Part shown: positions 35,553 through 47,069 of the stretch, piece after piece
Layout of the letters: every line of letters starts with the position of its first letter
How positions within the stretch are numbered: the stretch's first letter is position 1
Source of the DNA: Patescibacteria group bacterium
GTDB taxonomy: Bacteria > Patescibacteriota > Patescibacteriia > 2-01-FULL-39-33
Direction of reading: 5' to 3'
Length of the DNA: 64,000 nt
Assembly: GCA_041650895.1 (NCBI GenBank)
Contig: JBAZKF010000001.1
Span: 81,685-145,684 of the forward strand
Notes under the pieces: generated by a model
What the model was told of the DNA's origin: nothing
The model's input: only the letters and a program-made list of their open reading frames with translations
Database searches by the model: none
Translations under genes and position numbers: made by a program

Positions 35553-36647
35553 TTATTTGGGTAAAGTTATTGTCCTGATAAACTCCATCATGTTCTCCTT
35601 AAATCGCTCGGTAGAAAATTGCTCGGCATGCCGACTAATCGCCTGAGGATCGTATTTCTCCGGCTGGAAACGGATTACCATATCAGCCAAATCTTCCCAA
35701 ATCTGTTCATCAAATAATTCTCCGCTCAAACCAGGCTCAATAGTCTCAGTGGCACCGCCACGGTTATAGGCGATTACCGGCCGGCCCGAAGCCATGGCTT
35801 CAATGGCGGTAATGCCAAAGTCCTCTTCCTGCGGGTTTATGTACGCTAAACAATTAGCATATAATTCCCTTTTGGTTTCATCGTTTACCCGGCCCAAAAA
35901 TTCCACATTCGGCTTAGCCAGCGACTTTAAACGTTTTAGCTCCGGCCCCAGGCCAAAAACCTTAAGCGGTATGCCCAAACGGGAAAAAGCCCGCACCGTC
36001 AGATCAAATCTTTTATAAGGCACCAGCCGTCCGCCGGCCAAAAAATATTTTTTCGGCTTGTCGGAGATCGTGAACTGCGCCGTATCCACCGGCGGATAAA
36101 CCACTTGGCTACCGCGCTGATAGTATTTCTTGATCCTGCCGGCCACAGTCTGCGAATTGGCAATAAAATAATCCACGCGGTCAACGGCCAGACGATCCCA
36201 AGTGCGCAATTGGCGCAAGGTCAAGGGCAAGAATTTTTTAATCGGCATGATGACTTTGAGTTCATCCAGATAATTATGAGTGTCGTGCCACAGGTAGCGG
36301 GTCGGCGTATGGCAATAACAAATATGGATTGTGCCGGGATGCGTAATAACACCCTTGGCAAAAGATGAGGCCGAAGAAATGACCAAATCATAACCTCGCA
36401 AATCATGACTCTCAATAGCGGCAGGCATCAACGGCAAATACCATTGGTATTTTTTTACGCCCCAAGGAAACGACTGCAAGAAAGAAGTATTGATTTTCTT
36501 GTCTGCAAAGTAACTGTTGGTCTTGGCTTTGTCCGCGACAATAGTGAATATCGGCGCTTCAGGAAACATTCCCTTAAGCACCTTTAATACTTGTTCGGCG
36601 CCCCCGTCCTGCACCAGATGATCGTGGATCAAAGCGATTTTGGGCAT
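35553..36647 (-). CDS. glycosyltransferase family 1
   Basis: INPQEEDFGITAIEAMASGRPVIAYNRGGATE motif. N-terminal GT-B domain. Confidence 0.85.
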   Translation of the reverse strand: MPKIALIHDHLVQDGGAEQVLKVLKGMFPEAPIFTIVADKAKTNSYFADKKINTSFLQSFPWGVKKYQWYLPLMPAAIESHDLRGYDLVISSASSFAKGVITHPGTIHICYCHTPTRYLWHDTHNYLDELKVIMPIKKFLPLTLRQLRTWDRLAVDRVDYFIANSQTVAGRIKKYYQRGSQVVYPPVDTAQFTISDKPKKYFLAGGRLVPYKRFDLTVRAFSRLGIPLKVFGLGPELKRLKSLAKPNVEFLGRVNDETKRELYANCLAYINPQEEDFGITAIEAMASGRPVIAYNRGGATETIEPGLSGELFDEQIWEDLADMVIRFQPEKYDPQAISRHAEQFSTERFKENMMEFIRTITLPK

Positions 36648-36779
36648 AAAGATAATGCTGTTATTTTAGCCGATAGACAAAAATTAGGCAAACTAAAACC
36701 GTTTAAGGCTTCTCTAATTAAAAAAGCTCTGTGCAATATTGAACAGAGCGTAACTATGGATTGCATGCAGTAATAGCAT

Positions 36780-37031
36780 TTATGCCTTTAATGCAGCATC
36801 AATGATTTTCAAAGCGATTTCTTCACTAAACTCGCTTATTAGTTGGCTATATATCTCTTTTGTAACATCAAATCCCGCAGCGATTACCTTAATAGCTTGA
36901 TTCTCACCAAAACCCGCGCTTTGCATTGCGCCATAAATTTTCTTTAAAGCCTCAAAATATCCTTTGGAGTAACTCTTCTTATATCCATCTTCCTATGTCT
37001 CATCCATAGACACTTCTAATGAGTCAGGCAT
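36780..37031 (-). pseudogene. small ORF (83 codons) with an in-frame TAG after codon 12
   Basis: Strong Shine-Dalgarno AAAGGAGG lies 6 nt upstream of the ATG at 37031. The reading frame is MPDSLEVSMDET*EDGYKKSYSKGYFEALKKIYGAMQSAGFGENQAIKVIAAGFDVTKEIYSQLISEFSEEIALKIIDAALKA*. It is absent from the ORF track because of the TAG codon at 36993-36995 (minus strand). Confidence 0.3.
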
Positions 37032-37049
37032 ATTATTCCTCCTTTCTCA

Positions 37050-37502
37050 TTATTCAATACTAAATACTAAAGTATTGGCAGCAACCCAGCAATTTTCAAA
37101 ACATTTTGCCTGCTCTCCAGGCCAACGGAAAATCAATCCATCGGATTTGCCTGACAACCGATTGCATTTGCCGTTCAATTGAATAAATGAAAGAAATGAT
37201 TCTCTGCTTTCCATATAAACCTTATCAGAATAATGTGTCGAAGAATGAGAGGGAGCAATAAGAAAAACAAAAGCCTTGCCGTAACGTTTTTCCAATTCAC
37301 CTTTAATAACACAGCGGAATTCCACACTACCAACAGTAACCGTTTGTGAATGCAAATCTCGCGGATCGTACGCTTCCCATTCCAATGAACAAATATCGCC
37401 ATGTTTTAAAACGGCCGATAAAGCCTCAAGCTCATTACGCTCTTTTGGCAATCTGGCTGTAATTGTGAACAATTTTTTCTCCGGCTCATAATCAAATCTC
37501 AT
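37050..37502 (-). CDS. hypothetical protein (150 aa)
   Basis: Shine-Dalgarno AAAGGAG upstream. Its own sigma-70-like promoter sits at about 37560-37607. No recognisable motif. Confidence 0.45.
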   Translation of the reverse strand: MRFDYEPEKKLFTITARLPKERNELEALSAVLKHGDICSLEWEAYDPRDLHSQTVTVGSVEFRCVIKGELEKRYGKAFVFLIAPSHSSTHYSDKVYMESRESFLSFIQLNGKCNRLSGKSDGLIFRWPGEQAKCFENCWVAANTLVFSIE

Positions 37503-37692
37503 ACCTTGCTCCTTTCTGTCTTTTCGTCTATGCAGTAATTTAAAATCGTAATTTTGTTTTCAAGGTTCGACTAATAGGTCATTTTACCAGATATTTTAAA
37601 ATTGTCAAACTAAAACTGTTTAAGGCTTCTCTGTGTCTTAATATTAAATCAATAATTTAAAAGCAAAAAACGTCTACTCGCTTGAGTAAACG

Positions 37693-38136
37693 TTAAAAAT
37701 CGGAAATAACTACTTGGGAAAAACTGAATTTATCAGCAACAATTTTATAGCTCGGAACTAAGACCTTATGGGCTTGTAAAGGCGCTTGCGACAAATCTTT
37801 ATCATAATCATTGCCGATTACCAACAATTCCTCATCCTTAATGCCAAAAAATCGTAAAATCTGCTGATAAATCTTAGGGTACATGGAAAGCCTGAAAAAA
37901 CCATCGAATATTTCCAAGCCAAAAGGCGCTGTACCATTAAGGGTGGCGGCTAAATCCAATTGCATGTTAGTCAAATCGGAGTCAGAACTGGTAACTGTTT
38001 TAATTTTCAAATTTTTAGCATGCGAAATGAATTCTATAAAGCCCGGCCGTGGCGGCAAAGCATTTTCATAGTCATCAGAACAAAGAATGGTCCCGTAAAC
38101 ATCAAAAGCTATCACTTTTATTTGAGCCATGATCAT
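37693..38136 (-). CDS. HAD-superfamily hydrolase-like protein (short, dehalogenase-like motif I)
   Basis: Motif I IAFDVYGTIL (D-x-Y-G-T). Only 147 aa. Confidence 0.5.
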   Translation of the reverse strand: MIMAQIKVIAFDVYGTILCSDDYENALPPRPGFIEFISHAKNLKIKTVTSSDSDLTNMQLDLAATLNGTAPFGLEIFDGFFRLSMYPKIYQQILRFFGIKDEELLVIGNDYDKDLSQAPLQAHKVLVPSYKIVADKFSFSQVVISDF

Positions 38137-38176
38137 CTCCTTTTATTGTAAAGACATGACTAAACGAACCTTCTAA

Positions 38177-38382
38177 TGCTGTATTTTAAAGATAGCTCGA
38201 ACGCATTTTGGCTGTCCGCCAGAGGCGGACGCAGATTTTCTTCCCGACGAAATCCAATCCTGATTCTGATTTACGGCAATTTCCAGTTTTTCAATGAGTT
38301 AATCATAACTCATTTCAGTAAATTTTTCAAGAGCTGATTTATTGAAAAATTTACTGGGTTTGGCGGCAAATTCTTTTAGCTC
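38177..38382. repeat. composite inverted repeat L: inverted copy of Q (40066-40160) fused to inverted copy of S (40417-40525)
   Basis: 38179-38273 is the reverse complement of 40066-40160 and 38274-38382 is the reverse complement of 40417-40525. Both are essentially identical by eye. Confidence 0.8.
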
Positions 38383-38450
38383 TTTGAAAATTAAATAAAA
38401 AAAGAGGTGGCCGTCAACCGTGTTGACTTCCACCTCGGGTACTAATCGAC

Positions 38451-39824
38451 TTACTCGATTCTATCTAAGAATCCCAAAATCGATTTCTCTAACTCCGGAT
38501 GTCTGCGTATCTTGTCCGCATAGTGCCTTTTCTGCTTATCCGCAGAGTGATACTCGCTGACGATCTCTTGGCGCGCCCGATCCCATTGTTTCTGATCCAT
38601 TCCGGTTTTGTAGATGACCTTGTCTGTTGTGTAGTCGTCATAGCCGGTAATGGTGTCGCCGGGATTCAATCGGTTTGCCGTTACTGTTCCAGGAAACGGC
38701 ACTTCAAAACTGACACGTAACTGGTCGGCTCGAAACGGCAAAGATTCGAGAGCTTGCTTTTCAGCTTCAACATCGGTGGCAGTCATGCCAAGACCGCCGA
38801 TCATGAAATATGCGCGTGTCAGAATTCCAGCTTCGTCGCACAAGCCATAAGCCAACTCAGGATTTCCGGGTCGTTTGCCTCTTTCAGTGCGGACATCAGT
38901 TCGAGCAAATTCCAAGCCCATCATCGCCATAAATATTCCGGCGCGCTTCATGGCCTGCACCATTTCGCGATCCAAATTGAAATCAGGCAGACAGAAAGCG
39001 GGAAACGGACCTCGTTTTTCCATTTGCTGGCAGAGTTCCATTACCCAACCGCGGTCGGCGTTGAATAACGGATTGGCGATGATGTAAACAAGACCCGGTC
39101 CGAATCGTTTATCGAGCGCGCACATCTCATCGACGATATTGGTCGGCGAACGATGTAGGGTCTTGGGCGACATTATCCACGATGAACAATAGTCGCACCG
39201 GCCGTCGCAACCGAATGATCCGGCGATTGTGATACGTTTTGTCGGGTTTTTGATCAGTGTTTCCGGTGGGGCGAAGAGAATTTCATTCTTCGTGAATCTC
39301 GCCATGAACTCCTCAAAACGCAACGGCCACGGCAAGTCATCTAACGGATAAGGAGATTGACAGCCACCAGACAACTCTCTGACTTGAACAACACCTCGTT
39401 TGGCGCTACCAGCAGAGATATCATCCAACAACTGTGGCAATGCTCTCTCGCCTCGTCCCTTTACTACGAAATCGGCTCGTCCCTCTTCAAAAACTACCTT
39501 GGCCATTCTACCGACTCCTGCATGGTATCCGCCGTAAATGATCGGCACCTTCCCCTTGAAATTTTCGGCCACGCGATCGGCCAAAGATTTCGTATAGCTG
39601 TAAGGGAAAAGAGCCACTGCATCACAATCGCCGGCCTTGACGGCGGAGATAATCTGTTCTACTTGTGCGGTATCTTGCCGTACATAGCGAACTGACCAGC
39701 CAGCAAATTGTTCGACGCAAGCCGCAACAAGTTGAGCGCCGATTTCTTCCCGACCGATTCGGGTTTGACCGCTACGATCGGTTACAACCGATAAATCTGT
39801 GTCAACAAAAACAATCGTTGGCAT
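38451..39824 (-). CDS. B12-binding radical SAM protein (class B-like)
   Basis: N-terminal Rossmann-like B12-binding domain. CDGRCDYC (C-x3-C-x2-C) radical SAM cluster motif. 457 aa. GC visibly higher (about 50%) than the flanks. Strong Shine-Dalgarno AAAGGAGGG. Confidence 0.85.
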   Translation of the reverse strand: MPTIVFVDTDLSVVTDRSGQTRIGREEIGAQLVAACVEQFAGWSVRYVRQDTAQVEQIISAVKAGDCDAVALFPYSYTKSLADRVAENFKGKVPIIYGGYHAGVGRMAKVVFEEGRADFVVKGRGERALPQLLDDISAGSAKRGVVQVRELSGGCQSPYPLDDLPWPLRFEEFMARFTKNEILFAPPETLIKNPTKRITIAGSFGCDGRCDYCSSWIMSPKTLHRSPTNIVDEMCALDKRFGPGLVYIIANPLFNADRGWVMELCQQMEKRGPFPAFCLPDFNLDREMVQAMKRAGIFMAMMGLEFARTDVRTERGKRPGNPELAYGLCDEAGILTRAYFMIGGLGMTATDVEAEKQALESLPFRADQLRVSFEVPFPGTVTANRLNPGDTITGYDDYTTDKVIYKTGMDQKQWDRARQEIVSEYHSADKQKRHYADKIRRHPELEKSILGFLDRIE

Positions 39825-39900
39825 AAAACCCTCCTTTCAGTCGAGTTTTGCTAATAACACCTGATGTTTCAAAGAACATCCCTCACATTGGGAATATCCA

Positions 39901-39929
39901 ATTTTAGCAAATATTTATCAAAATGTCAA
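39901..39929 (-). promoter_or_regulatory. sigma-70-like promoter of the radical SAM gene
   Basis: Minus strand TTGACA (39924-39929), 17-bp spacer, TAAAAT (39901-39906). Confidence 0.5.
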
Positions 39930-40018
39930 CCCAAATAAAAAATGTCTGAAATGCGTCAAAAAAAACAGAAATCATAATAATTTCTGCAGTCAAATAAACA
40001 TAAAAATTTTCTTTTACC

Positions 40019-40259
40019 AAAATGCGGTTCGACCCGATATTTTTTCCGGTTCTTTGGCGGTTTTTTAAATCAGAATCAGGATTGGATTTCGTCGGGAAGA
40101 AAATCTGCGTCCGCCTCTGGCGGACAGCCAAAATGCGTTCGAGCTATCTTTAAAATACAGCACCAGAAAGGAATAGTCAAATTTTTCCGCTCCTCGCCAC
40201 CGCAGGCGGCGACCAAATCATACGGAATTTTATAATCAAAAAGTAATTGGCGGTTTTGT
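40019..40259. repeat. repeat block m (40019-40045), P (40046-40065), Q (40066-40160), IRa (40161-40259)
   Basis: m is the reverse complement of 41737-41763. P is the reverse complement of 40542-40561. Q is the reverse complement of 38179-38273. IRa is the reverse complement of 41764-41862 with 1 mismatch in 99. Confidence 0.8.
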
Positions 40260-40338
40260 CTGAATATTAATTCAGGGTAAAAGAAAAATTTTATGTTTAT
40301 TTGTCATTATCAGAATTAAATTATCATTAAAATATCAA

Positions 40339-41899
40339 TATGAAATACTTCATTTACGCTCGCAAGAGCACCGAAGACGAGGATCGTCAGATACTTTCAA
40401 TCGAAGCTCAGATTACTGAGCTAAAAGAATTTGCCGCCAAACCCAGTAAATTTTTCAATAAATCAGCTCTTGAAAAATTTACTGAAATGAGTTATGATTA
40501 ACTCATTGAAAAACTGGAAATTGCCGATTCATTTTTTGAATCAAAAACCGCCAAAGAACCGGGCCGAAAGATTTTCGGCGAAATACTGGCCAGAATAGAG
40601 CAAGGCCAAGCTGATGGCATCCTATCGTGGCATCCAGATCGCTTGGCGCGTAATAGCGTTGACGGTGGCAAGATTATTCATTTGGTTGATAGAGGAGTGA
40701 TAAAGGCCCTCAAATTTCCTTGCTTCTGGTTTGAACCCACCCCGCAAGGATTATTTATGCTAAATATCGCTTTCGGCCAATCAAAATATTTTGTGGACAA
40801 TTTACGGGAGAACGTAAAGCGAGGATTAAGACAAAAGCTAAGGAACGGTGTTTGGCCGTCTTTTGCGCCAGTGGGCTATCTAAACAATGCGAGAACTCGA
40901 GGCATTGATGTGGATACTGTTAAGAGCGACAAAATCAGGAAAGTGTTTGAACTTTACGCCACTGGCAATTATGCGCTTTTGTCTTTAGTTAATTGGTGCG
41001 AAGCTAACGGCTTGACTGGCGGTTATCATCGCAAATTGTCCGTTAATGCGATATTTAGCATGTTACAAAATATTTTCTACCTTGGTTTGATGCGCTACAA
41101 GGGTGAAGTATTTGAGGGCACTCACGAGCCATTAATATCAAAGAAATTGTTTGAAGAGGTGCAAAAAGTGCGCAATACCCGAGCGAGGACACGAAAAAAA
41201 TTACACAGAGAGTTTGCATTTACTGGACTAATGAAATGCTTGTGCGGTTGCTTCATTACCGCAGAAACACAGAAAGGCCACAACTATTATCGTTGTACGA
41301 AAAAACGAGGCGAATGCACTGAAAAGCACTTTTTGCGCGAGGAAGAATTGGAATCACAAATCAAACAATATCTTCAAACAATTGCTTTGAACGACCAAGA
41401 CCAGGAAAAGATTATGATTGAGTTGGACAAAGACGAACTAACAGCCAAAACGCAAGCTCAGACCAATGTTCAAAATCTCAAAAGCGAGTTAGAGAATATT
41501 AATCAGCAATTAGAGAAACTGCTTGATGTCTATTTGAGCGATACAATCTCGACTGACGAATACACCGCTAGAAAACAAAAAATCCTAACTCGCAAGTTAG
41601 AACTTAATGAGAAAATCAAAGATTTTGAACATAATAACTGGTCTTGGGTCGAACCGGCTCGTGAGTTTATTTTATCGCTCAACCAAGCTGATAATCTGCT
41701 ACGAAATTCAGAAAAGTCAGATCTGGCCGCATTTCTAAAAAATATCGGGTCGAACCGCATTTTACAAAACCGCCAATTGCTTTTTGATTATAAAATTCCG
41801 TATGATTTGGTCGCCGCCTGCGGTGGCGAGGAGCGGAAAAATTTGACTATTCCTTTCTGGTGCGCCCAGCTGGACTCGAACCAGCGACCATCAGCTTAA
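40339..41899 (+). pseudogene. large serine recombinase (resolvase/invertase N-domain, recombinase domain, zinc ribbon, coiled coil), disrupted
   Basis: N-terminus MKYFIYARKSTEDEDRQILSIEAQITELKEFAAK carries the catalytic Ser motif. An insertion of about 70 bp with an in-frame TAA at 40498-40500 follows. The frame then resumes as LEIADSFFESKTAKEPG, and a +1 shift in a G4 run (40560-40563) leads into RKIFGEILARIEQGQADGILSWHPDRLARN... (track ORF 40643-41899). The zinc ribbon CLCGCFITAETQKGHNYYRCTKKRGEC is present. The last 42 nt overlap tRNA-Lys. Confidence 0.7.
41737..41862. repeat. inverted repeats m' (41737-41763) and IRb (41764-41862)
   Basis: Reverse complements of 40019-40045 and 40161-40259. 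IRb ends 5 nt into the CCA end of tRNA-Lys. Confidence 0.8.
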
Positions 41900-41933
41900 A
41901 AGGCTGTTGCTCTACCGACTGAGCTATAGGCGC
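41858..41933 (-). tRNA. tRNA-Lys (anticodon UUU), CCA encoded
   Basis: Manual fold of gcgcctatagctcagtcggtagagcaacagccttttaagctgatggtcgctggttcgagtccagctgggcgcacca: 7-bp acceptor stem, D stem gctc/gagc, anticodon loop cuUUUaa, T-loop ttcgagt. Confidence 0.9.
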
Positions 41934-42103
41934 GTAATGTTTAGTATTAAATTGTTTTATCTTTCTTAGTTGCTGTTCGACCTGTCGGTCGAAGTTGCTC
42001 TTCCTCAACAGCGCTGATTTTATGAAACTATTTAATATTATACAGTAAATAATTTCTTTTGGCAAGTCCCTTGTGGAGAAATAAATCAAAACAAATATTG
42101 CTC

Positions 42104-42132
42104 TTGACAAAATATTAAAAATACTGTAAGAT
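42104..42132 (+). promoter_or_regulatory. sigma-70-like promoter of the 42208-44506 operon
   Basis: TTGACA (42104-42109), 17-bp spacer, TAAGAT (42127-42132). About 75-nt leader. Shine-Dalgarno AGGAG. Confidence 0.5.
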
Positions 42133-42207
42133 ATGTTGAAGTTCGTTAAAAGCACTTTAAAACTTAATGTTTCAGATTAGCCGTTAAACAGCCAACCGCC
42201 CAAATCA

Positions 42208-42765
42208 TTGGGCAAAATAGGAGAAAAAGCCATGGCCCCGCATTGTCTGCTACCCAATTGTATACTACTCATCTTCCTTTTTCTTGTTGCCTTGCAAATC
42301 ACGCCGTTTATAATTTTTTGGGCCTGGCTAAGCTGTTCCGCGATCAAGGCATTTGTTACCGACAATAAATCCTGGCACTTGAGTAAAAAACAGGATTGGT
42401 TTCTCTATAACTTTTGCCTATACCGATCTTTTCTTTACGAGGTTGTTAGTTTTACGGAACTTAGCGATGATATTGAGCGTGGCTATCAAGCAATAAAAAG
42501 CACCAACAACAATTACTTGGTTGTTATAAGGGATGTACTTATTATTTATCTTATTAACCTCATCATCTTGGCCATCTCATTCTTTGCCCTAACGGTTATA
42601 TTAGTAGTCGTTACCATAACTTTCCCGATCAGTCTTTATGTTTTCCTGGCCATGTCAGGGTTCGCTTTGATCATTGGGACTGGTTATGTGTCCTTACGCC
42701 TGGCGCGTTTCTTCTATCGCCTGCAAAGAAGGCTGAACATATCCGGAGAAAAAATAAAGTTTTAA
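42208..42765 (+). CDS. membrane protein, hypothetical (paralog A)
   Basis: Three predicted transmembrane helices. C-terminal motif LRLARFFYRLQRRLNISGEKIKF shared with the next gene. Confidence 0.5.
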   Translation: MGKIGEKAMAPHCLLPNCILLIFLFLVALQITPFIIFWAWLSCSAIKAFVTDNKSWHLSKKQDWFLYNFCLYRSFLYEVVSFTELSDDIERGYQAIKSTNNNYLVVIRDVLIIYLINLIILAISFFALTVILVVVTITFPISLYVFLAMSGFALIIGTGYVSLRLARFFYRLQRRLNISGEKIKF

Positions 42766-42792
42766 AACCGCAACCAATTGGGAGGATAAAAA

Positions 42793-43296
42793 ATGCATTC
42801 CTTCATGCCCTTTGCCGGCTGGCTTTTCCTAATGGTCTTTGTCTTGACCCCCGTCTCTTACTACAGCTGTTTGCTTATCAATTGGACTATTCTTTATGTT
42901 AAAGACGAAAAATGGCAAGCCTCCAAAACAATCAGGGATCTGCGTTATTATCTCTGTTGGGAGTGGCTGATTTCTGGAATTCTCGATGTGCTGAACCGAA
43001 CAGAAAATAACTTGCTAGACCTAACAGGAAATAACTATTATGATAACATCTTAAAGGAAGGCATAGACTACTACATCGGAATTCCCTTTATTGCGAATGT
43101 CATTATGTTTATTTTCTTTATTTGCGTTACTCTGGTGAGTCTGATAATTCTTATAGAATTTGGCTTATTCTGGCTCTTAGCAATATTGGGGCTGATACTC
43201 TGTGCCGCGATTTATTACCTTGTTATTCGCTTGATACGCTTCTTCTATCGTATGCAAAAAAAATTAAACAAAAAAGGCAAAGAGGTGGCTTTTTGA
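42793..43296 (+). CDS. membrane protein, hypothetical (paralog B)
   Basis: Shine-Dalgarno GGAGG. Same topology as paralog A. C-terminus VIRLIRFFYRMQKKLNKKGKEVAF. Confidence 0.5.
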   Translation: MHSFMPFAGWLFLMVFVLTPVSYYSCLLINWTILYVKDEKWQASKTIRDLRYYLCWEWLISGILDVLNRTENNLLDLTGNNYYDNILKEGIDYYIGIPFIANVIMFIFFICVTLVSLIILIEFGLFWLLAILGLILCAAIYYLVIRLIRFFYRMQKKLNKKGKEVAF

Positions 43297-43378
43297 GAAC
43301 CGCCGGAAACCAACATATGAGCCAAACCCGTCTTGCGCTCATAGAACTAAACACTGTTATATCGGATAGGAGGCATGA

Positions 43379-44506
43379 ATGACGAATAAAGAAAATCCCG
43401 ATGCCATTACTTTACCAAAAATCAAAGGAGTGGTAGAAATACCCAACTGCGGACTTTATGCCAAGGGTCCGCGAAAATTAAGAAAGCTCTTTGAGTGGCT
43501 AAGCCAATACTACGATATTGAGGACTGTTCCAAGAATGAAAGCTACCCCTCTCCCGGCACTTGGTATGCCAGAATAAAGCCGAGCTTGGTGCATGAATGT
43601 GTCAAATGTAATTGGTGCGGATCCTATATAAACCCAGTGGGAGTCGGTATCCATGGTCATCGTTGCGAAATCTGCAATAAGATAACAATGGAAAGATTCA
43701 CCCATAACGGCACGATCCGTTTCCGTTTCGCAGATGACTGCGATATTTCCGATATTGAAATGAGAATATTCGGCTATGATGACGCTACCGAAAGCATACT
43801 GCTCTATCCGAATATAGTATCAAGCGAAAGATGCTTCATACTTACACAACAACAAGCTCATAAAAAATTCAAAAGATTTTCTGCTAGCTGGCAAGAGGTG
43901 GAACGCAACGGCCAAAAGCTGATCGCCATCCCCAGAAGCAATATTAATTCGGTTGAGATCATAGGCCAAAAAAGACATTATAAAGCAGTCAGACTATTTG
44001 CCGGTAAAGAGTACGATGGTTGGCCCCTCAACGATCTGCCCGTCACTGAGTCATACATGATTTATGAGGCCTGGCGTTGGGCGCCACTTAGGCCATCGCC
44101 AAAACTGCACGAGAGCATAATCCATGCCGCAGGCATGGTCAGTCGAGTTGATTTTTATTATCAGGATGGTCGCCGGGCCTTTGACGACATTCACCTTCAA
44201 CGCATGCGGCGATTTGTCCATCATTTTACCACTCTTGACCTTAATGAGTGGGATCGGATGATCAGCCAAAATGATTTATCCGGCCCAAGCATGATTAGGG
44301 CGATCGCTCGTCTCTGCCACCCCAACGCACAAGTACGAAATAAACCGAACATCAGCAATTTAATTGACGCCACTGCTAAAATCGCTGATGGAGAAAGTCT
44401 TTGTATGAATGAAATGATGGCCGCAGCCGATGCTCTGAAAAATCCCAGAATCTGCAGGGAGTTCATTGATATTATGGGATGTGGTATCAAAATCCAAAAC
44501 ATATAA
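43379..44506 (+). CDS. hypothetical protein with N-terminal zinc ribbon
   Basis: Shine-Dalgarno AGGAGG. CVKCNWCGSY...HRCEICNK (C-x2-C...C-x2-C). 375 aa, no other recognisable motif. Terminator at 44521-44555. Confidence 0.5.
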   Translation: MTNKENPDAITLPKIKGVVEIPNCGLYAKGPRKLRKLFEWLSQYYDIEDCSKNESYPSPGTWYARIKPSLVHECVKCNWCGSYINPVGVGIHGHRCEICNKITMERFTHNGTIRFRFADDCDISDIEMRIFGYDDATESILLYPNIVSSERCFILTQQQAHKKFKRFSASWQEVERNGQKLIAIPRSNINSVEIIGQKRHYKAVRLFAGKEYDGWPLNDLPVTESYMIYEAWRWAPLRPSPKLHESIIHAAGMVSRVDFYYQDGRRAFDDIHLQRMRRFVHHFTTLDLNEWDRMISQNDLSGPSMIRAIARLCHPNAQVRNKPNISNLIDATAKIADGESLCMNEMMAAADALKNPRICREFIDIMGCGIKIQNI

Positions 44507-44666
44507 AACAAAACAAGCACCTTACGGAGCTCCGGCCAAACTGGAGCTCTTTTTAATTTCCGCCTTCTTAATATTAAGAAGGCTTTTTTAATACAAAATT
44601 TTAACACAAAAAAAGCCGGCGCCATAAAGCAACCGGCCCTAACAAAAAGTTTCAAATGAGCAAAAG

Positions 44667-45455
44667 TCAAATGGAAAGGGAGGAACGATAACCGTCGAGC
44701 TGTTCCTTCCAAACCTGAAGGAGTTTTGGCTGAGCCGGTTCTGTTACAAACCATTGAACCTTTTGCCAATACGACAAATAAGGTGACGGATTAAATAGAC
44801 GATCACTAAGAGCTAACTGCTCAATCAATGCCCGGCCATTGGAAAATTCTGCGAATAAGCTATTAACAGCACGGATACCAGTCAGACCCAAATCAGCCCA
44901 AGTTACCAGGATTTCGCCATCACTTGAAGCCAACTCTTTGGCTATAGGCGGAGCAGATTCATCACTCTCAACTAATATTTCAAACATGCGCCGGTTAGGC
45001 AGACGATCGCCTGCCGATACATAACAGCCGTTTGCTGTCGGCCATAACACAATCCCGCACTTCTTAAAATGGATAAAACAAGAAGCACACAAAGAAATTC
45101 GCAAATCAAATTTACTCTTTTGACCTTCCACTAAGCGGAAATTCCACCAATTGCTGGGCAAAAAATCCGAATTATTTTCTTGCGGATTATTATCCACTAA
45201 AGTAAAAATTTCATTATAGCAATCGGGACGCAGTTGCTGCCGAATCCCTAGGGAAGCCAAAACCGCCAGCAATCTATTATCCAATACATATTCTTTAATC
45301 GGTTTGGAAGACGCTCCCGGCCGATCCGAATATAAATAGCCAAACTCCAACCCCTTAAAGGCTATGGCCTTTTGCAGAAGATCCGATTCCGTTAAAGCTT
45401 CTTGACCGACTACCAAAGGTCCGAACATTGGAGGCGAAACGACTTTATTTCCCAT
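44667..45455 (-). CDS. hypothetical protein (262 aa)
   Basis: Long ORF convergent with the preceding operon. No motif recognised. Confidence 0.4.
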   Translation of the reverse strand: MGNKVVSPPMFGPLVVGQEALTESDLLQKAIAFKGLEFGYLYSDRPGASSKPIKEYVLDNRLLAVLASLGIRQQLRPDCYNEIFTLVDNNPQENNSDFLPSNWWNFRLVEGQKSKFDLRISLCASCFIHFKKCGIVLWPTANGCYVSAGDRLPNRRMFEILVESDESAPPIAKELASSDGEILVTWADLGLTGIRAVNSLFAEFSNGRALIEQLALSDRLFNPSPYLSYWQKVQWFVTEPAQPKLLQVWKEQLDGYRSSLSI

Positions 45456-45671
45456 AATCCTACTCCTTTCTATTGTTGTTCAGTACTGTTTAAAGTGCGA
45501 ATTAAACAAAATCTGTCTAATTGTCTGGATAGAGATTACAACAAAGTGGGCAAAAAAGCAAGCCTTTGGACCTAATAAAGTTATACCCCTTGGCGTGTGC
45601 ATAAACTGTCCAAAACTCTTCAAAACCGGTGGTTTGCCAAGGTGGGACAATTAAGGTAAAATGTAAGGGAC

Positions 45672-47069
45672 TTGAATGCCCTAAAGGTGACAAATATGTC
45701 CGACAACTCCTTACGCAAACTGCCGCCGCAAAACCTGGAAGCCGAGCAATCGCTTTTAGGCGCTTTATTGATTGACAAGGATGCCATTATCAAAATCGCC
45801 GATCTCATCACATCCGAAGATTTTTACCAGACGGCGCACGGCATTATCTATTCTGTCATTTTGGAATTGTTTGAACGCAAAGATCCGATTGACATTTTAA
45901 GTTTGAGTAGCCGATTGAATGAATTGGGTAAAATCGATCTGGTTGGCGGACGCAGTTATCTGATTACCCTGACCAACCAAGTGCCTTCGGCGGCGCATGT
46001 CGTATCTTATGCGCAAATCATCCAGAAAAAAGCCACCCTGCGCCGACTGATTGCCGCCGCTTCCAATATTTTGGATCTGGGCTATCAAGAAGACAAAGAA
46101 GTCAACGAAATCCTGGACAAGTCCGAGCAGTCTGTTTTCGCGGTTTCGCAAAAATTCTTAAAAGAAAAATTCACCCACATCAAAGATGTGCTGACTGGCG
46201 CCTTTGACCGCATTGACGAATTGCATCGCGAGAAAGGCAAGTTGCGCGGTTTGCCCACCGGCTTTACTGAAATGGATAACGTTTTAGGGGGGTTGCAAAA
46301 ATCCGATTTGATTATTCTGGCCGCCCGCCCTTCGGTCGGCAAGACGGCTTTGGCCTTGGATATCGCCCGCAACGCCGCCATCCGCCACAAAAAATCCGTC
46401 GGCATCTTCTCGTTGGAAATGTCCAAGGAGCAATTAGTTGATCGTTTGATTTCTGGCGAAGCAGGAGTAGATATGTGGAAGATGCGTACCGGCCGACTAT
46501 CCGAAGCCGGCGAAGATTTCCCCCGTATCGGCCACGCCATGAGCGAATTGTCGGAAAGCAATATTTTTATTGACGATTTTGCCAACACTAATGTCATGGA
46601 ACTCCGCACCAAGGCGCGAAGATTGCAAATTGAACATGGACTGGATTTGATCATCCTGGATTATTTGCAATTAATGGAGGGTTCGGGTAGCCGCCAATCA
46701 TCGGAAAGCCGCGTGCAAGAAATCGCCGAAATATCCCGCGCTCTTAAGGGTTTGGCGCGCGAACTCAATATCCCCGTTTTGGCGCTATCCCAGTTATCCC
46801 GCGCCGTGGAAATGAATAAGCCGGCCATCCCTAAGTTATCGCATTTGCGCGAATCCGGCTCCATTGAACAGGACGCGGATGTGGTTATGTTTATTTATCG
46901 CAAGGCCTCCGACAGGAATTTTGACATCAATTCCTTAACCGAAGAAGAAAAGCACTCGGCGGAAATCCATGTCGCCAAACACCGCAATGGCCCGACCGGC
47001 CTGGTGCATTTGTATTTTGAAGGCAATACTGTATCATTTAAAAATTTAGACAGAAGCTATAATCAATAA
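45672..47069 (+). CDS. dnaB: replicative DNA helicase
   Basis: N-terminus LPPQNLEAEQSLLGALL. Walker A GARPSVGKTALAL. RecA-like C-domain. 465 aa. Confidence 0.95.
   Translation: MNALKVTNMSDNSLRKLPPQNLEAEQSLLGALLIDKDAIIKIADLITSEDFYQTAHGIIYSVILELFERKDPIDILSLSSRLNELGKIDLVGGRSYLITLTNQVPSAAHVVSYAQIIQKKATLRRLIAAASNILDLGYQEDKEVNEILDKSEQSVFAVSQKFLKEKFTHIKDVLTGAFDRIDELHREKGKLRGLPTGFTEMDNVLGGLQKSDLIILAARPSVGKTALALDIARNAAIRHKKSVGIFSLEMSKEQLVDRLISGEAGVDMWKMRTGRLSEAGEDFPRIGHAMSELSESNIFIDDFANTNVMELRTKARRLQIEHGLDLIILDYLQLMEGSGSRQSSESRVQEIAEISRALKGLARELNIPVLALSQLSRAVEMNKPAIPKLSHLRESGSIEQDADVVMFIYRKASDRNFDINSLTEEEKHSAEIHVAKHRNGPTGLVHLYFEGNTVSFKNLDRSYNQ

Follow-up and report, generated by a model that had tools for sequence, protein, structure and literature searches.

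We analyzed a 64 000-nt stretch of DNA (hereafter the window) of a Patescibacteria group bacterium (GenBank assembly GCA_041650895.1, contig JBAZKF010000001.1, positions 81 685–145 684), in which a gene for a B12-binding radical SAM protein and a gene for a large serine recombinase lie next to a tRNA-Lys gene and are bracketed by nested inverted repeats. The tRNA was identified as an intact tRNA-Lys(ttt) by ARAGORN and by Rfam (73.9 bits), and the radical SAM gene and the recombinase gene were assigned by Pfam domain matches. The features of the region are collected in the table below, in which L numbers denote loci on metagenome contigs used for comparison and P0001–P0003 denote full-length relatives of the recombinase.

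Features of the tRNA-Lys-associated region (coordinates in the window)
Position	Strand	Feature	Observations
38177..38179	+	Left core (TGC), left junction of the element (attL = host flank / Q')	Identity to the other two junctions starts here: TTCTAATGC versus TTCTGGTGC
38180..38273	+	Q', 94-nt arm, inverted copy of Q	Contains the attP-type half-site (AGATAGCTCGAAC) and a GC hairpin followed by a T-run
38274..38382	+	S', inverted copy of recombinase nt 79-121, split at nt 102/103 by a 66-nt two-hairpin insert	109 nt, 100% identical to S
38403..38440	-	Intrinsic-terminator-like hairpin plus T-run downstream of the cargo gene	Read from the sequence; loop too long to be reported by the hairpin scan
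38451..39824	-	Cargo gene, B12-binding radical SAM protein (457 aa; NCBI MFA5124321.1)	Pfam PF02310 and PF04055
39901..39929	-	Cargo promoter-like site	TTGACA-17-TAAAAT with an upstream TG (11 of 12 matches)
39991..40018	+	I5L, inverted copy of I5R	28 nt, 1 mismatch; conserved position in relatives
40019..40045	+	I4L, inverted copy of recombinase nt ~1332-1358 (I4R)	27 nt, 100%; sequence resembles the Q' half-site
40046..40065	+	P, inverted copy of recombinase nt 138-157 (P')	20 nt, 100%; the two copies co-vary at codon third positions across loci
40066..40159	+	Q, 94-nt arm of the internal, inverted attP-like site	
40160..40165	+	Internal core GCACCA	Reverse complement of TGGTGC
40166..40259	+	R, 94-nt inverted copy of the last 94 nt of the recombinase reading frame before the core	
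40276..40303	+	I5R	Just upstream of the recombinase start codon
40340..40441	+	Recombinase codons 1-34	Includes the YARKST catalytic-serine region
40418..40526	+	S, recombinase nt 79-102, the insert, then nt 103-121	Partner of S'
40442..40507	+	66-nt insert interrupting the recombinase gene	Two perfect hairpins and an in-frame TAA; identical to the insert in S'
40508..41899	+	Remainder of the recombinase reading frame	Pfam PF00239, PF07508 and PF13408; last codons read antisense through the tRNA 3' end
40543..40562	+	P'	Codons for SKTAKEPG
41737..41763	+	I4R	Codons for KNIGSNRIL
41764..41857	+	R', 94-nt arm, 3' end of the recombinase gene	Contains a GC hairpin inside the coding sequence
41858..41863	+	Right core TGGTGC, right junction (attR = R' / tRNA)	Antisense of the tRNA's GCACCA 3' end
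41858..41933	-	tRNA-Lys(UUU), the target gene	T-arm antisense GGACTCGAACC serves as the attB-type half-site

We first searched the window for inverted repeats. Including the core positions, the Q'/Q pair extended over 103 nt (38171–38273 and 40066–40168) with 98% identity and was 100% identical over 38177–38273 and 40066–40162, while the R/R' pair extended over 100 nt (40160–40259 and 41764–41863) with 99% identity. In 30 shuffles of window positions 36000–44000, the longest exact inverted match averaged 13 nt with a maximum of 16 nt, and the observed repeats were therefore far beyond chance. The five repeat pairs described in a first-pass annotation were thus all confirmed, although its coordinates for S and for the second copy of P were each one base low, and it had missed both the sixth pair (I5L/I5R) and the fact that the recombinase reading frame is split by the 66-nt insert, which makes up most of repeat S. 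Parts of the arrangement were reproduced exactly in two other assemblies: a JGI contig was identical to window 36472–39112, spanning the flank, Q', S' and the radical SAM gene, and a Logan contig was identical to window 38353–40022.

The recombinase had Resolvase (PF00239), Recombinase (PF07508, E = 5e-12) and Zn_ribbon_recom (PF13408, E = 5e-8) domains, and PF00239 matched both halves of the split gene. The YARKST motif at residues 6–11 was conserved in the alignment with relatives. Apart from the insert, the gene was collinear with full-length relatives, and the reconstructed 497-aa protein was 89–91% identical to P0001–P0003 over its full length. The insert was absent from the recombinase genes of L003, L004, L005, L006 and of the 36 other loci listed in this comparison, but was present in the S' copies of L003, L006, L009, L019 and others. 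An S' was found next to Q' in all 38 loci examined, and about a third of these carried a two-hairpin insert at the same position. The 109-nt length of the S repeat was peculiar to the copy in the window.

We then asked whether the arrangement was conserved. The same ordered set of repeats (Q' S' cargo I5L I4L P Q R I5R rec[S, P', I4R, R'] tRNA) recurred in well over 100 independent loci from metagenomes and MAGs, with recombinases only 50–91% identical to that of the window. Nearly every metagenome locus that contained both the 3' end of the gene and enough upstream DNA had an R/R' repeat of about 100 nt with a median identity of 99%, although the recombinases of most of these loci were only 60–68% identical to this one and R' itself was only ~60% identical between loci. 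The Q'/Q, P/P', I4L/I4R and I5L/I5R pairs occupied the same relative positions. In GTDB genomes from many candidate phyla, R/R' was present in 54 of 66 testable loci, Q'/Q in 38 of 48, and an antisense tRNA at the 3' end of the gene in 60 of 71. Close relatives with 87–91% identical backbones (L005/L003 and L006) carried different cargo genes, and the cargo proteins across the family were diverse and always divergent from the recombinase gene.

The insertions were located precisely at the 3' ends of tRNA genes of many identities, including Leu, Lys, Arg, Gln, Glu, Ala, Val, Asn, Ile, Phe, Met, Ser and Tyr, and the left flank was host DNA, often the 5' end of the next tRNA in a cluster. A core of 3–9 nt matching the local tRNA end was shared by all three junctions, and the left junction in other loci kept 3–9 nt of the antisense of the local tRNA's 3' end, whereas only TGC was repeated at the far end in the window. 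The host-side left half-site was not conserved. The TCGAAC motif started at +18 from TGG in tRNA arms and at +23 in Q' arms in 27 of 29 loci, so that with the center placed at GC, the motif falls at half-site positions 11–19 versus 16–24, in agreement with the attB/attP zinc-ribbon-domain motif shift described for serine integrases (PMC3783163). Two elements, L014 and L044, were 99.2% identical up to and including TGGTGC, where the identity stopped exactly, and then continued into tRNA-Lys and tRNA-Arg, respectively, indicating mobility between tRNAs. L003 and L005 were the same element (100% and 99.94% identity), 91% related to that of the window, with the segment between R and R' inverted. 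This difference rests on two assemblies, and a path error through the 99-nt repeat is unlikely given the k141 prefix of the contig name, but not excluded. In L039, the tRNA abutted the upstream R copy. The inverted state was seen only in L003 and L039 among about 58 loci, and the cargo segment had the same orientation in all 38 loci examined. Neither an empty target site nor a circle junction (R'-core-Q'-S') was found among about 57 loci with enough downstream sequence.

From these results, we consider with fairly good confidence that window 38177–41863 is an integrated 3.7-kb copy of a modular mobile element family common in Patescibacteria, inserted exactly at the 3' end of tRNA-Lys and composed of a large serine recombinase module and a one-gene cargo module, here the radical SAM gene with its own promoter-like and terminator-like sequences. 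In this view, the attachment site of the free form is R'-TGGTGC-Q', and crossover with the tRNA end, most likely at the GC of TGGTGC (tRNA positions 71–72), split one copy of that site into the two element ends, host/Q' at 38177 and R'/tRNA at 41863. A second, intact copy of the same site lies inverted inside the element (Q-GCACCA-R, 40066–40259) and separates the cargo segment from the recombinase segment, which is why both Q'/Q and R/R' appear as ~100-nt inverted repeats. The two pairs are better read as the halves of one ~200-bp site present twice than as two independent inverton pairs. The short repeats (S', P, I4L and I5L) are conserved copies of short stretches of the recombinase gene and its leader, placed 95–170 bp from the cores. 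The recombinase segment would be able to invert between R and R', as suggested by the relatives. In this particular copy, the 66-nt insert that normally sits only in S' has been copied into the matching position of the recombinase gene, presumably by gene conversion; the enzyme is therefore inactivated, the element is probably immobile unless served in trans, and the unusually long S/S' repeat results. While the anatomy, its conservation across the family, the junction positions, the inversion and retargeting in relatives and the gene disruption were directly observed, the catalytic mechanism, which in serine integrases is a concerted double-strand cleavage with a 2-nt overhang at a central dinucleotide in a unidirectional attP x attB reaction, the crossover dinucleotide, which was deduced from half-site symmetry and junction limits, and gene conversion as the origin of the insert are inferences. 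The family is apparently undescribed, as no description of it was found in the literature that could be searched.

The first-pass annotation had proposed an inverton or shufflon, the scars of recombinase-mediated rearrangement of an element integrated at a tRNA gene or, given the absence of microhomology at the S/Q, P/Q and similar junctions, a chimeric assembly. This interpretation was only partly supported: integration at a tRNA gene, the serine type of the recombinase and the association of the repeats with its system held, and inversion of the recombinase segment is documented in a related element (L003 versus L005), but the repeats are neither scars of rearrangement nor a chimeric assembly, and the recombinase is of the large serine integrase type and not of the invertase type that had been suggested. 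An assembly or amplification chimera, arising from repeat-induced misjoining or from template switching during multiple-displacement amplification, might be suspected from the 98–100% identity of the repeats, the lack of microhomology and a Logan k=31 contig that breaks about 30 nt inside S', but it is effectively refuted, since the same ordered repeat set with locus-specific sequences occurs in JGI, ENA and NCBI assemblies, the separate JGI contig spans the left part identically, and the source contig extends over 957 791 bp. The lack of microhomology is explained because these junctions are conserved module boundaries, not rearrangement joints. Non-functional relics are likewise very unlikely: although the recombinase gene is disrupted here and L004 is a deleted derivative, relics would diverge, while the copies are 99–100% identical within loci yet differ between loci, and even the 20-nt P and 27-nt I4 copies co-vary with their partners at synonymous sites.

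A classical inverton or shufflon that switches expression of the radical SAM gene and/or the recombinase within a population is also unlikely. Two adjacent segments are each bounded by ~100-nt near-perfect inverted repeats with a serine recombinase inside one of them, the recombinase segment is seen in both orientations in one element, albeit in two different assemblies, and in the flipped state the recombinase gene would, by inference, lie downstream of and co-directional with the tRNA and its strong promoter-like site. On the other hand, the single cargo orientation, the cargo's own promoter and terminator, the rarity of the flipped state, the integrase-type enzyme and the mobility between tRNAs argue against frequent switching, and there was no sign of shufflon-like switching of the radical SAM gene. 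It remains possible, though less likely than a single element with a duplicated att site, that two elements lie side by side, an autonomous recombinase unit bounded by R/R' and one or more non-autonomous cargo cassettes bounded by Q'/Q that the recombinase moves in trans in an integron-like or MITE-like way. L004 has the R/R' unit with almost no Q, L019 carries two cargo cassettes in series, L039 and L082 have a further segment bounded by inverted repeats on the other side of the recombinase, and cargo differs between near-identical backbones. However, no solo Q'..Q cassette was seen away from a recombinase unit in the loci examined, without a systematic search, and the Q and R arms always meet at a single shared core matching the target tRNA end, as expected for halves of one site. 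This description largely overlaps with the favored one and is not strictly exclusive of it.

Among known systems, phage-type large serine integrases (Bxb1, phiC31, Listeria A118/LI integrase) have the same domain set followed by a long helical stretch, a short shared core at the junctions, an attP next to or over the 3' end of the integrase gene and the 5-bp shift of the outer half-site motif towards the center in the host site. The present element differs from them in that it targets the 3' end of essentially any tRNA gene with the T-arm acting as the half-site, has 94-nt arms each with a GC hairpin, contains a second, inverted, intact attP-like copy and carries short copies of recombinase-gene segments near the sites. 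Canonical serine-integrase sites are 50 bp or less and need no second copy (PMC4111918), and the long arms, the hairpins, the internal site and the short repeats are therefore not explained by the standard mechanism. The element is 3–5 kb long with one cargo gene and is not a phage (only 3 weak hits in viral contigs), and no gene that could encode a directionality factor is evident.

In the Hin/Gin/Cin/Pin invertase systems, a serine recombinase gene lies inside (Hin) or next to a segment bounded by inverted repeats, and an accessory site (the enhancer) lies within the recombinase coding sequence, as do the conserved repeated motifs S, P' and I4R here. Those enzymes are ~190-aa invertases with a C-terminal HTH domain, 26-bp sites and a Fis-dependent enhancer that serve phase variation at a fixed locus, whereas this one is a 497-aa integrase-type enzyme with 94–109-nt repeats on a mobile, tRNA-targeting element with fixed cargo orientation. 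The R64-type shufflon uses a tyrosine recombinase (Rci) acting on several short sites to shuffle alternative 3' ends of one gene, while the recombinase here is of the serine type, no alternative coding segments are present and the cargo is a complete gene. tRNA-targeting genomic islands and small cargo elements such as tycheposons (10.1101/2020.12.28.424599) also insert at the 3' end of tRNA genes, leave the tRNA intact and carry small variable cargo, but are reported to be catalyzed by tyrosine integrases (PMC4383910). Such islands are flanked by direct repeats of a tRNA fragment, while here only 3–9 nt are shared at the junctions and the element is internally palindromic. The inferred free circle would carry two inverted copies of the recombination site dividing it into two unique segments, one encoding the recombinase, with two isomers expected, as in the FLP/FRT isomerization of the yeast 2-micron plasmid, although FLP is a tyrosine recombinase, its repeats are 599 bp, and the plasmid replicates autonomously and does not integrate. 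A further comparison is offered by SSV1-type archaeal integrases (review: PMC8371274). In these, the attP also lies inside the integrase reading frame and the target is a tRNA gene, so that integration changes the integrase ORF, but the enzyme is a tyrosine recombinase whose gene is split in two on integration, whereas here only the last few codons change.

We first re-examined the inverted repeats by direct repeat detection and found that each pair listed by the first-pass annotation was present, so that its observation was confirmed, and that one additional pair (I5L/I5R) had been missed. In shuffles of the same 8 kb, the longest inverted match was 13 nt on average and 16 nt at most. The gene on the cargo side has B12-binding and Radical_SAM domains, and the recombinase has Resolvase, Recombinase and Zn_ribbon_recom domains and is thus a large serine recombinase. 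Its reading frame is split, which the first-pass annotation had not seen, by a 66-nt insert with two perfect hairpins and an in-frame TAA. Removal of the insert gave a 497-aa protein that aligned end to end with full-length relatives at 89–91% identity.

Coordinates of the features in the window
Feature	Position	Strand	Description
S' / S	38274-38382 / 40418-40526		inverted pair, 109 nt, 100% identity
Q' / Q	38177-38273 / 40066-40162		inverted pair, 100% identity over these positions (103 nt at 98% in full)
R / R'	40160-40259 / 41764-41863		inverted pair, 100 nt, 99% identity
I4L / I4R	40019-40045 / 41737-41763		inverted pair, 27 nt, 100% identity
P / P'	40046-40065 / 40543-40562		inverted pair, 20 nt, 100% identity
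I5L / I5R	39991-40018 / 40276-40303		inverted pair, 28 nt, 1 mismatch
Left junction core	38177-38179		retains only TGC
Internal site	40066-40259		intact, inverted
Right core	41858-41863		TGGTGC
GC-rich hairpin in R'	41795-41815		inside the recombinase coding sequence
GC-rich hairpin in Q' / Q	38213-38231 / 40108-40126		
Host-side arm of left junction	38160-38179		contains GGTTCG on the bottom strand
tRNA-Lys(UUU)	41858-41933	-	
Cargo gene	38451-39824	-	B12-binding radical SAM
Cargo promoter-like site	39929-39901		11 of 12 matches
Recombinase codons 1-34	end at 40441		
Two-hairpin insert	40442-40507		66 nt, in-frame TAA
Recombinase frame, remainder	resumes at 40508		
Promoter-like site in insert, recombinase copy	40470-40498	+	TTGAAA-17-TATGAT, 10 of 12 matches
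Promoter-like site in insert, S' copy	38302-38330	-	TTGAAA-17-TATGAT, 10 of 12 matches
HAD-family hydrolase gene	37693-38136		left of the radical SAM gene
Direct repeat	36681-36715 and 37598-37632		35 nt, 89% identity, in two intergenic regions
Match to JGI contig L002	36472-39112		100% identity
Match to Logan contig L001	38353-40022		
DNA between tRNA-Lys and helicase-like ORF	41934-45671		about 3.7 kb
ORFs in that DNA	42208-42765, 42793-43296, 43379-44506, 44667-45455		
Helicase-like ORF	45672-47069		465 aa

The arrangement was reproduced in independent data. A JGI metagenome contig (L002) spans the host flank, Q', S' and the start of the cargo, and a Logan contig (L001) equals the window over 38353-40022, while the window itself comes from a 957,791-bp contig of a Patescibacteria MAG. 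Among the recombinase fragments and neighboring ORFs queried against public assemblies, only the radical SAM gene and the HAD-family hydrolase gene to its left returned contigs, and four other look-ups returned nothing on record. The Logan contig, assembled with k=31, ends at 40022/40023, where no exact 30-nt repeat exists in the window, which could reflect a variant path in the assembly graph of the sample or simply low coverage. The intergenic 35-nt direct repeat upstream of the element was also present in L002.

More importantly, the architecture was conserved far beyond this genome. A protein search returned 7743 relatives at E <= 1e-20 among the 8000 candidates that were scored, from which we obtained 80 metagenome loci, 80 loci from species-representative genomes and the contigs of two close relatives. 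In nearly every metagenome locus that holds both the 3' end of the gene and enough upstream DNA, the last ∼94 nt of the gene plus 5–6 nt beyond it were repeated, inverted, 35–80 nt upstream of the start codon, with a median length of 100 nt and a median identity of 99%, and the ∼95 nt abutting that upstream copy (Q) were repeated, inverted, 0.6–1.9 kb further upstream (Q'). Between Q' and Q lay one gene, always divergent from the recombinase. The small repeats recurred in the same places, where I4L and P lie just outside Q with partners inside the recombinase gene, I5L pairs with I5R next to the start codon, and an inverted copy of recombinase nt ∼83–120 (S') lies directly inside Q' in 38 of 38 loci. 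In the genome set, with recombinases of 50–72% identity from many candidate phyla, R/R' was found in 54 of 66 testable loci, Q'/Q in 38 of 48 and an antisense tRNA at the 3' end of the gene in 60 of 71. Between loci, R' was only ∼60% identical, so the two copies evolve in concert within each element, and even the 20-nt P and 27-nt I4 copies followed their partners at synonymous codon positions.

We then aligned the junctions and found three sites per element that share a short core, namely host flank-core-Q', Q-core'-R, which is the reverse complement of R'-core-Q', and R'-core-tRNA. The core is TGGTGC in the window and TGGCTG, TGGCTC, TGGCAG or TGGTGG elsewhere, matching the NCCA end and last acceptor base pairs of the local tRNA. 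Q'/Q and R/R' are therefore the two arms, both 94 nt long in the window, of a single ∼200-bp site that is present once intact inside the element and once split between its two ends, which is what integration of a circle through R'-core-Q' into the tRNA end would produce. The left flanks were ordinary host DNA, often the 5' end of the next tRNA of a cluster only 4–35 nt away, and the element therefore sits exactly between the 3' end of a tRNA and whatever followed it. No conserved host-side half-site was found to the left of Q'. The GGTTCG in the window lies at about the distance expected for an attB-type half-site, suggesting that the ancestral region downstream of tRNA-Lys may have been a fairly symmetric target, but other loci lack this motif. 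The left junction also suggests that the original tRNA-Lys gene did not encode CCA and that the element now supplies it.

The spacing of these sites was compared with that of known serine integrases. In the tRNA arm, the T-arm antisense motif TCGAAC begins 18 nt from the T of TGG, while in the Q' arm the same motif begins at 23, and this held in 27 of 29 loci, the two exceptions being false early pattern matches. Placing the center at the GC of TGGTGC puts the motif at half-site positions ∼11–19 in the tRNA and ∼16–24 in Q', which are the positions given for the zinc-ribbon-domain motif in attB and attP of the Listeria integrase, with the 5-bp shift proposed as the general basis of site discrimination (PMC3783163). 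Short cores with a matching central dinucleotide are also the rule for serine integrases (PMC4111918). This evidence is indirect, but it specifically supports the assignment of Q' as an attP-type half-site and of the tRNA as the attB-type half-site.

Comparisons of relatives indicated both mobility and inversion. Two metagenome loci, L014 and L044, were 99.2% identical over 1454 nt, where the identity stopped immediately after TGGTGC and the sequences continued into tRNA-Lys and tRNA-Arg, respectively, indicating recent movement between targets and giving a precise right boundary. The close relatives L003 (ENA, ERZ27254750) and L005 (JGI, Ga0208373), in which the recombinase gene is intact, carry the same cargo gene and are the same element, with L003 1-1530 matching L005 1763-3292 at 100% and L003 1432-3183 matching the reverse complement of L005 1-1752 at 99.94%, so that the segment between R and R' is inverted in one relative to the other. 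A further metagenome locus, L039, also has the tRNA abutting the upstream R copy. A motif census recovered only L003, with no further flipped copies and no circle junction (R'-core-Q'-S') among about 57 loci with enough downstream sequence, and the cargo segment always had the same polarity. Inversion of the recombinase module therefore happens, but the usual state is the one in the window.

The radical SAM gene of the window has a strong promoter-like site and a hairpin plus T-run downstream. Close relatives with 87–91% identical backbones carried a different gene in the same slot, an Acyl_transf_3 protein in L006 and a 373–391-aa protein with no counterpart in the window in L003 and L005. 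Across the family, the cargo included an Asp/Glu racemase, an SDR, methyltransferases, a pilin-like protein, a subtilase and many proteins without Pfam hits. In another relative, L004 (9800-9830), we found a cargo-less derivative with the sequence flank-TGGTGC-TGTATTTTAAAGATA-GCACCA-R, in which all of the cargo segment and most of Q' and Q are deleted at a 2-nt GC overlap, yet R and R' are still 99% identical.

In the family, S' is a 34–38-nt inverted copy of a nearly invariant stretch of the recombinase gene (GAATTTGCCGCCAAAGAAAAACTTGAAATTGTC). In about a third of the loci S' was split, at exactly nt 102|103, by 33–66 nt that fold into two adjacent hairpins, whose sequences differed between loci while the pairing was kept in 11 of 13 variants. 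The recombinase genes themselves were uninterrupted in all of the 36 other loci compared and in L003–L006, and only in the window does the gene carry the insert, which is identical to the insert in its own S'. The simplest reading is non-reciprocal copying (gene conversion) from S' into the gene through the 24-nt and 19-nt flanks, which would have inactivated the enzyme, because the catalytic serine region is cut off from the rest by a stop codon, and would have created the exceptional 109-nt repeat. Given that all of the repeats are still 99–100% identical, the event is probably recent. While the repeats, the junctions and the interrupted gene were seen directly in the sequences, this copying event and the crossover dinucleotide, predicted to be the GC of TGGTGC with a 2-nt overhang, are inferred. 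The promoter-like site within the insert points outward through Q' towards the host HAD-hydrolase gene in S' and into the truncated gene in the recombinase copy, but its hexamers are not conserved in all insert variants, whereas the hairpins are.

Several other origins were weighed. An amplification or assembly chimera, the latter raised as a possibility by the first-pass annotation, was rejected on the reproducibility of the arrangement in other contigs and loci. The interpretation as an inverton or shufflon, or as the scars of rearrangement at a tRNA gene, was only partly supported, in that an element does sit at a tRNA and one module can invert, but it was wrong about scars, chimeras, the invertase type and switching of the radical SAM gene. 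By domain content the enzyme is a member of the large serine recombinase family and its sites follow the spacing rule of that family, and the system is not a Hin/Gin invertase system, not a shufflon and not a tyrosine-integrase tRNA island. A phage origin was rejected because only 3 weak hits were found in viral contigs. The insert was also considered as an intron, a translational-bypass element or a known RNA, but an Rfam search at E <= 1 found only the tRNA in 37500-42500, and since the insert carries an in-frame stop and is absent from all other recombinase genes examined, we read it as a disruption. Nor is it a repeated MITE, as no other copy exists in the 64-kb window. When an antisense-RNA role was considered for P, I4L and R, no plus-strand promoter-like site was found upstream of them, although this does not exclude such a role.

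A canonical serine integrase needs neither 94-nt arms, nor GC-rich hairpins 25–55 nt from the core in both arms, nor an internal inverted attP, nor copies of pieces of its own gene. The hairpin in R' lies in the most variable part of the C-terminal tail of the recombinase and keeps its pairing through compensatory changes between loci. In these respects the family differs from the serine integrases to which its enzyme belongs, and the copy in the window is read as an inactivated member. The interest of the locus lies in what it reveals about the family rather than in this decayed copy. Literature searches on serine recombinases, tRNA genes and inverted repeats in Patescibacteria, CPR or Parcubacteria, together with a search for the SRA run, found no description of this architecture or of tRNA-end-targeting serine recombinases in Patescibacteria, although most subscription journals were not covered and prior description cannot be excluded.

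In a more speculative reading, which we regard as possible but on balance unlikely, these elements would form a distinct class of serine-recombinase mobile element in which the internal inverted copy of the attachment site is a working part of the machine rather than a duplication. It could let the recombinase module flip between an orientation convergent with the tRNA (quiescent) and one co-transcribed behind the tRNA promoter (active). It could also stay available as a live attP that reacts with further tRNA genes and so deposits or stacks cargo cassettes, giving a serine-recombinase analogue of an integron at tRNA loci (L019, L039 and L082, described below, hint at such arrays), or it could act in single-stranded DNA, for example after uptake by these naturally competent bacteria, as a splint that pairs with both element ends and rebuilds a duplex attP, allowing circularization without a directionality factor. 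One or more of these roles may apply, and the short co-varying copies of recombinase-gene segments would then be accessory or pairing sites of a higher-order complex not known for serine integrases. If this reading is right, one of the commonest recombinase families in Patescibacteria, with at least 586 hits in species-representative genomes and thousands in metagenomes, belongs to a compact single-gene delivery system that recognizes a universal feature, the acceptor/T-arm end of tRNA genes, which would explain part of how these tiny, streamlined genomes acquire and exchange accessory genes. 

The 94-nt arms with hairpins, the internal inverted attP and the co-varying short repeats fall outside the current serine-integrase model and are directly testable with synthetic DNA. 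Given that serine integrases are genome-engineering tools, a family with naturally varied cores, a target motif shared by all tRNA genes and no evident directionality factor may be of practical interest. For annotation, these loci break assemblies, with many contigs ending exactly at R', and their recombinase genes are easily mis-called because the ORF runs antisense into the tRNA.

Three loci suggest that cassettes can be stacked. In the metagenome locus L019 (2911-5936), two cargo cassettes lie in series upstream of one recombinase and are joined tail to tail at the GC hairpin of Q without the core-proximal half-sites, which hints at a second kind of joint. Downstream of R', L039 (2090-5253) and L082 (6702-9526) have neither a tRNA nor a standard Q' but a diverged Q'-like arm (TCTTTATTGTACCAAGTTAGAACCTATTTTC...), followed by a further 2.6–2.9-kb two-gene segment bounded by 109–123-nt perfect inverted repeats, and the loci L024 and L067 show a similar Q'-like arm after R'.

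Beyond the 5' side of tRNA-Lys, the window holds extra DNA before an ORF that looks like a DnaB-type replicative helicase from its N-terminal sequence, whereas in the related locus L005 the tRNA and the homologous gene are only ∼385 nt apart. Among the four ORFs in this extra DNA, the first three had no Pfam hit, and the first two share a 43-nt direct repeat (72% identical) near their 3' ends, which may mark them as paralogues, so that this may be a second island at the same tRNA. In L006, the homologue of the helicase-like gene lies on the Q' side of the element and in the opposite orientation, while in L005 and the window it lies beyond the tRNA, suggesting a chromosomal rearrangement with an end point at the element.
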